From Escherichia coli (GTDB lineage: Bacteria > Pseudomonadota > Gammaproteobacteria > Enterobacterales > Enterobacteriaceae): DNA of 64,000 bases. Shown piece by piece: positions 14,686 through 14,727 of the stretch (positions within the stretch are counted from its first letter, which is position 1; every line of letters begins with the position of its first letter). The notes beneath the pieces were generated by a model. It searched no databases. It was not told the origin of the DNA and saw only the letters and a list, made by a program, of their open reading frames with translations. The DNA is taken from assembly GCF_044324785.1 (NCBI RefSeq), contig NZ_CP172127.1; one strand, given 5' to 3'. The position numbers were made by a program, and so were the translations under genes.

Positions 14686-14727
14686 TGGCACAGAGCCAAA
14701 CCTGAACTGACGGACCGCTCTGTGCCA
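14686..14727. repeat. perfect 10/11-bp inverted repeat with 20-nt spacer (hairpin or palindromic site)
   Basis: ggcacagagc (14687-14696) and gctctgtgcc (14717-14726), exact reverse complements; lies between the convergent yhcH 3' end and the stop of the orphan ORF. Confidence 0.5.

Follow-up and report, generated by a model that had tools for sequence, protein, structure and literature searches.

Results

An 86-nt transposon-like end downstream of nanQ

The perfect inverted repeat that follows nanQ (yhcH) in the Escherichia coli DNA analysed here, a 64-kb stretch that we call the window, is very probably the internal stem-loop of the A-type end of a non-autonomous, cargo-carrying transposon, present in the window as a solo end. 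This end, a complete A-type terminal inverted repeat of 86 nt (14654-14739, + strand), was delimited with nhmmer, with blastn and by the point at which homology to K-12 ends (14653), and it is an unannotated new member of a known, poorly characterised repeat family. By blastn the element occurs in 2743 of the 5426 complete E. coli genomes, in one to five copies and never annotated; it is also found in 156 plasmid records, mostly from Klebsiella, and the family extends over P2-like prophages, plasmids and chromosomes of many Enterobacterales. About half of the complete E. coli genomes thus carry an unannotated end that, in P2-like prophages and in plasmids, flanks defence cargo. Should the transposon reading be right, it would offer a concrete mechanism by which phage 'hotspots' acquire and exchange defence genes, and the 86-nt end would be a simple sequence marker for such cassettes.

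A repeat search of the window returned two 11-nt arms that are 100% complementary and lie 20 nt apart: the left arm TGGCACAGAGC (14686-14696, + strand), which is conserved in A-type ends, and the right arm GCTCTGTGCCA (14717-14727, + strand). The 20-nt loop between them (14697-14716, + strand) carries in its 3' part AACTGACGG, the local version of the family-wide motif AATCTGACAG. An earlier note on this DNA had described a perfect inverted repeat, extendable to 11 bp, with a 20-nt spacer, and had placed it between the convergent yhcH and an orphan open reading frame (ORF), abutting the stop codon of the latter. Both descriptions were borne out, the first by the repeat search and the second by the ORF listing, in which nanQ/yhcH (14188-14652, + strand) precedes the repeat and an ORF on the minus strand follows it, the right arm touching the stop codon of this ORF (14728-14730). 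RNA folding, proposed in the same note as a check, gave the hairpin on both strands of a 111-nt segment, with z scores of about -3.5 against shuffles (-3.4 and -3.65). The folds also contained a second small hairpin, TCAGGT-GTG-ACCTGA, in the outer block of the window copy. A cmscan search of 14300-15400 against Rfam, with E up to 10, returned chance-level matches alone, the best scoring 19 bits against a gathering score of 55.

By itself, the inverted repeat is not beyond chance. A 64-kb window of such composition is expected to hold 0.44 perfect 11-bp inverted repeats with a 3-30 nt spacer, and at least one was present in 30% of the Markov-1 simulated windows. The window has four distinct ones, the other three being classical A-run/T-run terminators. 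The repeat is counted as real because it is conserved in related sequences, not because of its own statistics.

Relatives were sought with the pattern TGGCACARAGC-N8-32-GCTYTGTGCCA, in which the arms are fixed and the spacer is free. It gave matches of 42 nt, with a 20-nt spacer, in Serratia, Kosakonia, Enterobacter, Proteus, Brenneria and Pantoea, and in these the conservation extended to the loop and, on either side, to about 30 nt of flank. Arms, loop and flanks are thus conserved together, which places the inverted repeat at the centre of a conserved element of about 86 nt. The loop motif and the left flank were combined into an anchor that constrained neither arm; scanning IMG/VR with it gave 69 loci, and these were turned into an nhmmer profile. 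The sole match of this profile in the 64-kb window lies at 14656-14739 (E=5.4e-17, profile positions 3-86 of 87); the outer terminus at 14654 is an extrapolation of the profile alignment to position 1 (T-T-TATTAGC versus the consensus TGTATTAGC). The window sequence 14654-14739 aligns end-to-end with other family copies, from the outer terminus T(T)TATTAGCTCAG at 14654 to the inner end ...CCTGACGTT at 14739, and it starts with the outer conserved block (14654-14679, + strand), whose consensus over an alignment of 82 unique copies is TGTATTAGCTCAGACTTGA[C/G]CTGACA.

This conservation bears directly on the reading of the hairpin as a chance palindrome, or as a by-product of the deletion in the neighbouring yhcG, with no inherited function. 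The expected number of such repeats per window and the position of this one in a rearranged region would suit that reading. However, phages, plasmids and at least eight genera have copies that share the arms, the spacer length, the loop motif and the flanks, and the repeat lies 32 nt inside the boundary of the rearrangement. The conservation data refute the chance palindrome, and we give this whole reading next to no probability.

The window element is homologous to the inverted repeats of the P2 Z/fun region

In blastn searches, window positions 14656-14745 matched P2-like phages immediately after the tail-fibre assembly gene G. In the Z-region records of P2-EC58 and P2-EC53 (AJ512683, AJ512682) the matching sequence bears the annotation 'left inverted repeat', and a counterpart past the moron ORF is labelled 'right inverted repeat'; the match to the left repeat of AJ512683 had 80.2% identity (E=2e-11). 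The similarity to the P2 Z/fun inverted repeats, about 80% identity, covers the arms, the loop motif and both flanks, which makes it direct homology. As in P2 and P2-EC58, the window copy stands beside an AT-rich accessory ORF transcribed toward the repeat. Unlike in P2 Z/fun, this copy stands alone, at a chromosomal housekeeping locus outside a prophage, and the right repeat is missing. The idea that the chromosomal copies are mere P2 prophages was rejected, since tblastn with P2 H, G, Z/fun and FI gave one tail-fibre match only; most chromosomal copies therefore lie in other contexts.

The Z/fun repeats of P2 are reportedly presented as site-specific recombination sites in the 2004 paper of Nilsson, Karlsson and Haggard-Ljungquist in Mol Biol Evol 21:1. 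According to the relevant passage of a review that cites Nilsson et al. 2004 (PMC8987985), fun has inverted repeats on both sides, in the genomes of phages as well as of bacteria. Unlike the site-specific recombination of the 2004 title, the family studied here displays 7-bp duplications at many different sites. The literature searched, to which the 2004 primary paper did not belong, held no description of target-site duplications of Z/fun-type cassettes, and searches for the end and arm sequences as literature text returned unrelated primers only. The 2004 paper may already contain the family-level picture, in which non-autonomous transposons carry defence genes and leave 7-bp duplications.

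Paired ends are flanked by 7-bp duplications

At most loci the element is present as two inverted copies 0.5-7.5 kb apart, with the inner ends (...GAGCGGACNTT) facing the cargo and the outer ends (TGTATTAGCTCAG... and ...CTGAGCTAATACA) pointing outward. Right outside the termini there are 7-bp direct repeats, identical at 7/7 positions in 21 of the 39 unique full pairs and at 6/7 in nine more, and the flanking 7-mers vary by locus (CTATATC, GATTAAG, ATTAAAT, TATAACG, AATAATT, ACTAAGG, CATCACC). A good duplication is absent in 9 of the 39 pairs, perhaps because the insertions are old or because recombination of one copy with another has rearranged them. The presence of variable 7-bp direct repeats at many sites points to transposition with a 7-bp target-site duplication; together with the inverted arrangement of the copies and the many target sites, it fits transposition better than site-specific recombination.

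The two ends of a cassette are not alike. In 31 of the 32 pairs with both ends typed, one A end is combined with one B end. Three blocks are common to A and B ends, namely the outer 26 nt (TGTATTAGCTCAGACTTGASCTGACA), the central AATCTGACAG, which the family alignments show to be conserved in both types alike, and the inner GAGCGGAC (GAGCGGACNTT). The hairpin is specific to A ends, where it brackets the central motif; its commonest form is GGCACAGAGC/GCTCTGTGCC. The B end reads ...TCTGCTTTGAGCGA and has only 3-4 Watson-Crick pairs at the ten hairpin columns. A perfect 10-bp stem is present in 15 of the 45 unique A ends, and at least 8 of the 10 pairs are kept in most others. At one stem position, four sequences have C:G in place of G:C, a compensatory change that may be a single event; the covariation term of RNAalifold is close to 0 and the A-end stem is otherwise conserved as sequence, so that these alignments give no more than a slight hint of selection for stem pairing.

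Cassettes carry defence and other cargo into many sites

The cargo of the cassettes includes a CBASS operon, E1/E2/JAB proteins with multi-ubiquitin, a reverse transcriptase, and Mrr- and HNH-type nucleases; other cassettes carry an ORC/Cdc6-like protein with a metallophosphatase, arsenic resistance, esterases or single small ORFs. Thus, locus L208 (6598-13308) encodes a SMODS cyclase, a ThiF-type E1, a SAVED-HNH protein, an exonuclease and Mrr, and is flanked by a perfect 7-bp duplication, CATCACC. Locus L181 (877-6334) encodes E1/JAB and E2/multi-ubiquitin proteins and has the perfect 7-bp duplication ATTTAGA. A reverse transcriptase lies between the A and B ends of L228 (2020-5322), the ORC/Cdc6-like protein and metallophosphatase are found in L065 (6880-11308), and the arsenic resistance genes arsB and arsC in L057 (1948-5051).

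No transposase domain was present among the approximately 60 cargo regions scanned, including the largest cassettes (up to 7.3 kb of cargo), which had been taken from the IMG/VR, plasmid and metagenome searches in the search for an autonomous copy. The cassettes are therefore considered non-autonomous and are presumably mobilised in trans. From the repeats and duplications, on which the case for a transposition chemistry is built, we infer a family of non-autonomous transposons. No parent insertion sequence with the ends of this family was found, so it was assigned to no IS family. A single complete cassette, in a Klebsiella michiganensis plasmid (locus L125, 7873-9086), has an Rpn-family (YhgA-like) gene about 170 bp outside its outer terminus. 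This gene is named 'recombination-promoting nuclease/putative transposase' and is a possible lead to the mobilising enzyme.

Elements of comparable organisation include mobile insertion cassettes and cargo-bearing MITE-like elements, such as MIC231 of Bacillus cereus and the Tn3-derived TIMEs. As in these, terminal inverted repeats and a target-site duplication surround passenger genes and there is no transposase. Unlike in these, the ends are about 86 bp long, are of two types (A and B) and go with a 7-bp duplication. Long, multi-site, asymmetric ends with TG...CA termini are known from Tn7, Mu, Tn552 and the IS21 family, whose duplications measure 6-7 bp (Tn552), 4-8 bp (IS21 family) and 5 bp (Tn7 and Mu). 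The TGT...ACA termini, the ends of about 90 bp, the CTGACA-like sub-motifs and the left/right asymmetry of our family resemble these systems by analogy only. Its ends are not known to be similar in sequence to those of Tn7, Mu, Tn3, Tn552 or the IS21 family, and it has no linked TnsB-, MuA- or IstA-like gene.

Insertions were found in the P2 slot between G and FI, directly after genes with Phage_P2_GpU and Phage_tail_S domains, 3' of a P4-like primase, in plasmid backbones and at the 3' ends of two different IS66-family elements. In the latter, the genes of two unrelated IS66-family transposases stop within or at the outer terminus of the 86-nt element, in the Klebsiella plasmid pINF078-VP (L121, 3433-5085) and in Pantoea allii (L047, 827-2468, and L048). 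The IS66 3' ends may be a preferred target of the cassettes, or this may be chance. IS66-family ends have GTAAGCG... terminal repeats and go with an 8-bp duplication. That the element is itself an IS66-family end was considered and rejected: in pINF078-VP the left end GTAAGCGTAACG has no matching right end, the transposase gene is truncated and takes its stop codon from the TGTATGA of the element, and no IS66 right end follows. Since the IS66 gene is truncated by the element and its right end is missing, insertion of the cassette into IS66 is the better reading.

The variety of these sites also weighs on the proposal that the hairpin is the crossover site of a site-specific recombinase, at which cassettes are swapped between phages and chromosomes. 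This is how Nilsson et al. 2004 read the repeats, as far as the citing passage of the review goes (PMC8987985); moreover, many cassettes share one P2-like intergenic slot, from G to FI, and the 101-aa ORF described below is, in several genera, surrounded by DNA whose homology ends in or beside the proximal arm of the hairpin. In those genera, however, the rest of the end is degenerate and not cleanly cut. The copies that flank cargo are inverted, although a site-specific recombinase that integrates a circle leaves direct repeats, and the flanking 7-mers are true duplications that vary by site. Moreover, the insertions lie in many unrelated places (gpU, gpS, P4-like primase, plasmids, IS66 3' ends), and no recombinase gene travels with the cassettes. 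We consider a crossover site quite improbable. Integron attC core sites (RYYYAAC ... GTTRRRY) bounding the palindrome were not seen on inspection of 14654-14745, and the copies around cargo, inverted and with duplications, do not fit an attC site either.

Transposition remains the reading that we prefer, and a wider version of it can be formulated, which we judge possible and somewhat less likely than its opposite. The Z/fun repeats would then be the unlike A and B ends of an unclassified, defence-carrying family of non-autonomous transposons, moved by a trans-acting transposase with recognition of the A hairpin. The same family would generate a 7-bp duplication, carry up to 7 kb of cargo that comprises anti-phage defence systems and other accessory genes, and insert into P2/P4 hotspots, plasmids and chromosomes across Enterobacterales, and the repeat in the window would be the fossil of one such insertion.

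A proposed insertion and rearrangement at the nanQ-yhcG locus

In the window, 14653 is the last base of identity to K-12 and the first past the stop codon of nanQ (14188-14652, + strand), the last gene of the nan operon, and the outer terminus of the element is the next base, 14654. The 7-mer GCTTAAA (14647-14653, + strand), which includes the nanQ stop codon, is presumed to be the left copy of the target-site duplication, the right copy having been lost. It is AT-rich and contains TTAA; the duplications of the family are AT-rich too, several with TTAA or TAA (ATTAAGT, GATTAAG, ATTAAAT, CTTAATA). The empty site of K-12 reads GGCTTAAA/ACTTAG.

Three states exist 3' of nanQ among the complete E. 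coli genomes. In the K-12 state, nanQ is followed by a different hairpin and then by full-length yhcG, and in the second state gltD comes directly after nanQ. The state of the window is shared by about 720 of the 5426 genomes, with E. coli B derivatives among its carriers: here a low-GC segment of 470 bp (14654 to about 15123), single-copy and always chromosomal in the complete E. coli genomes, replaces the K-12 hairpin and the C-terminal two-thirds of yhcG. The GC content is 0.35-0.43 across 14625-15225, compared with 0.46-0.67 in the nan genes. The right junction of the foreign segment lies at 15119-15124, homology to other genera ending at about 15119 and homology to K-12 yhcG resuming from 15124, and there is no B-type end at it. 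ORF units of Yersinia, Enterobacter and two metagenome contexts are mutually homologous past 15119-15123 or so and differ there from the window, so this junction is specific to this E. coli lineage. Beyond it lies the N-terminal remnant of yhcG (DUF1016_N; 15124-15435, - strand), recognised by Pfam (E=7.5e-19) and by alignment to K-12 yhcG; RefSeq annotates it as a pseudogene in strain S10.

A second, B-type copy was not found with nhmmer in the whole window (E<=1), nor in 14760-15300 with the filters off and E up to 1000. A degenerate inverted copy at about 15090-15123, which would have completed a cassette of 470 bp, was considered and rejected, as nhmmer with all filters off found nothing.

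The comparison with other E. coli strains, which the earlier note had suggested, was decisive. The outer tip of the element is the left boundary of the replaced segment. The note had also raised the possibility of a recombination or deletion scar. This stands in so far as the repeat belongs to recombination-related DNA; the repeat itself is neither a scar nor the boundary of the yhcG deletion, since the replaced segment is bounded at 14653/14654 and at about 15119-15124 and the repeat lies 32 nt inside its left edge.

The simplest account of these junctions would be an insertion followed by a deletion. In the E. coli lineage of the window, a cassette would have landed one base past the nanQ stop codon; subsequently, deletion or recombination would have removed the B end, most of the cargo, the native hairpin downstream of nanQ in K-12 and the 3' two-thirds of yhcG, leaving as survivors the solo A end and one cargo ORF of 101 aa. 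An intact intermediate, with a full cassette after nanQ, was not found in the E. coli genomes compared. One insertion and one rearrangement would in this way account for the truncation of yhcG, the origin of an orphan 'transposase' gene and the odd hairpin after the nan operon.

A further proposal treats the hairpin as a host operator or promoter element, either the site of a dimeric regulator or a sigma-54 -24 box. The repeat has dyad symmetry and, on inspection, its TGGCAC matches the sigma-54 -24 hexamer. On neither strand, however, was a TTGC -12 element seen at the correct spacing, and the sigma-54 promoter was rejected on this ground. The sequence is missing from nan loci of the K-12 and S65EC types, and its unrelated contexts elsewhere mean that it cannot be nan-specific. 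An operator or promoter role has, in our view, a negligible probability. The earlier note had raised the possibility of a spaced palindromic protein-binding site. For one specific to nan we found no evidence; the same sequence is present, in unrelated contexts, in P2-like phages, plasmids and other genera.

The 101-aa ORF beside the A end

The ORF next to the A end (14728-15033, - strand) corresponds to the RefSeq CDS WP_000639208.1, of 306 nt and 101 aa, with an ATG at 15033; the program-made ORF list starts it at a TTG at 15069. Its last four codons, including the stop (14728-14739), fall within the inner block of the repeat. It matched nothing in Pfam, NCBIfam, PHROG or PDB, and its RefSeq name, 'transposase', looks unsupported. 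An AlphaFold model of the protein had a mean pLDDT of 58, too low for a fold search.

Homologues, with 59-100% identity and all of about 101 aa, occur near prophage genes in Enterobacter and Yersinia, and also in lambdoid prophages, where those of 59% identity immediately adjoin the gene for the antiterminator N and face the opposite way. The right arm of the hairpin is kept after the stop codon of the homologues in other genera. The 86 nt upstream of the ORF (15034-15119, - strand) are also conserved across genera and contain, by eye, a putative sigma-70 promoter (TTGCAT-17 nt-TATATT), which the stricter -35 rule of the promoter scan did not call. With a plausible promoter of its own upstream, the ORF looks like a self-contained moron.

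Possible roles of the hairpin

The hairpin shares with intrinsic terminators a GC-rich perfect stem directly 3' of two convergent stop codons. It differs from them in its loop, of 20 nt as compared with the usual 3-8 nt, and in having no U tract. No T-run follows the repeat on either strand (beyond the stem, the + strand continues with UUACCUGACG and the - strand with AAAGAUGGGU), and the terminator scan made no call there. The view of the earlier note that this is not a classical terminator is therefore upheld.

A role at the RNA level is still worth weighing. The hairpin would then serve both strands, terminating, insulating or stabilising the 3' ends of the nan operon transcript on one and of the ORF transcript on the other, and in phages it would keep moron transcription apart from the late genes. 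The repeat lies between convergent genes not only here but also in P2 (G and Z/fun) and in Proteus (MarR and isochorismatase), its stem is GC-rich and stable on both strands, and, as the K-12 hairpin downstream of nanQ is lost here, something else must end the transcript. Against such a role stand the features of loop, tails and scan just described, the lack of an equivalent hairpin in B ends, the negligible covariation and the lack of a match to an Rfam family. The orientation of the cargo was also mixed, with just 62% by coding length directed toward the A end (19.9 kb vs 11.9 kb), which does not suit a dedicated cargo terminator. On balance, we regard an RNA-level role as unlikely.

Our tentative preference, which falls a little short of an even chance, is that the hairpin acts at the DNA level, as part of the architecture of the A end, in recognition by the transposase or a host factor or in marking the end. 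By presenting the central AATCTGACAG motif it could distinguish the A end from the B end for either of these proteins. The probability left over by the DNA-level and RNA-level roles goes to some other function or to none. In the window, the hairpin is probably a fossil that has no remaining role in transposition; at most, with the native K-12 hairpin gone, it may form an RNA stem-loop that influences how the nan and ORF transcripts end.

Finally, further palindromes occur at this locus in K-12. The yhcG coding sequence of K-12 contains three tandem palindromic units of about 25-33 bp (ATTTGGCAGACAGCGTCTGCCAAAT, GGGAATTCTGCAGACGGTGTCTGCGGAATTCCC and AATTCGCCAGACATTGTCTGGTGAATT), and a very similar fourth palindrome, ATTCTGCAGACACTGTCTGCAGAAT, lies just 3' of nanQ (locus L002, 1611-1638 and 2368-2480). 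The window retains two of the three yhcG-internal palindromes, at 15127-15148 and 15161-15189, with a gap of 40 bp in the alignment. Strain S65EC, which is without yhcG, has one palindrome between nanQ and gltD, in which both arms are altered and the pairing is kept (GCCAGAC...GTCTGGC).
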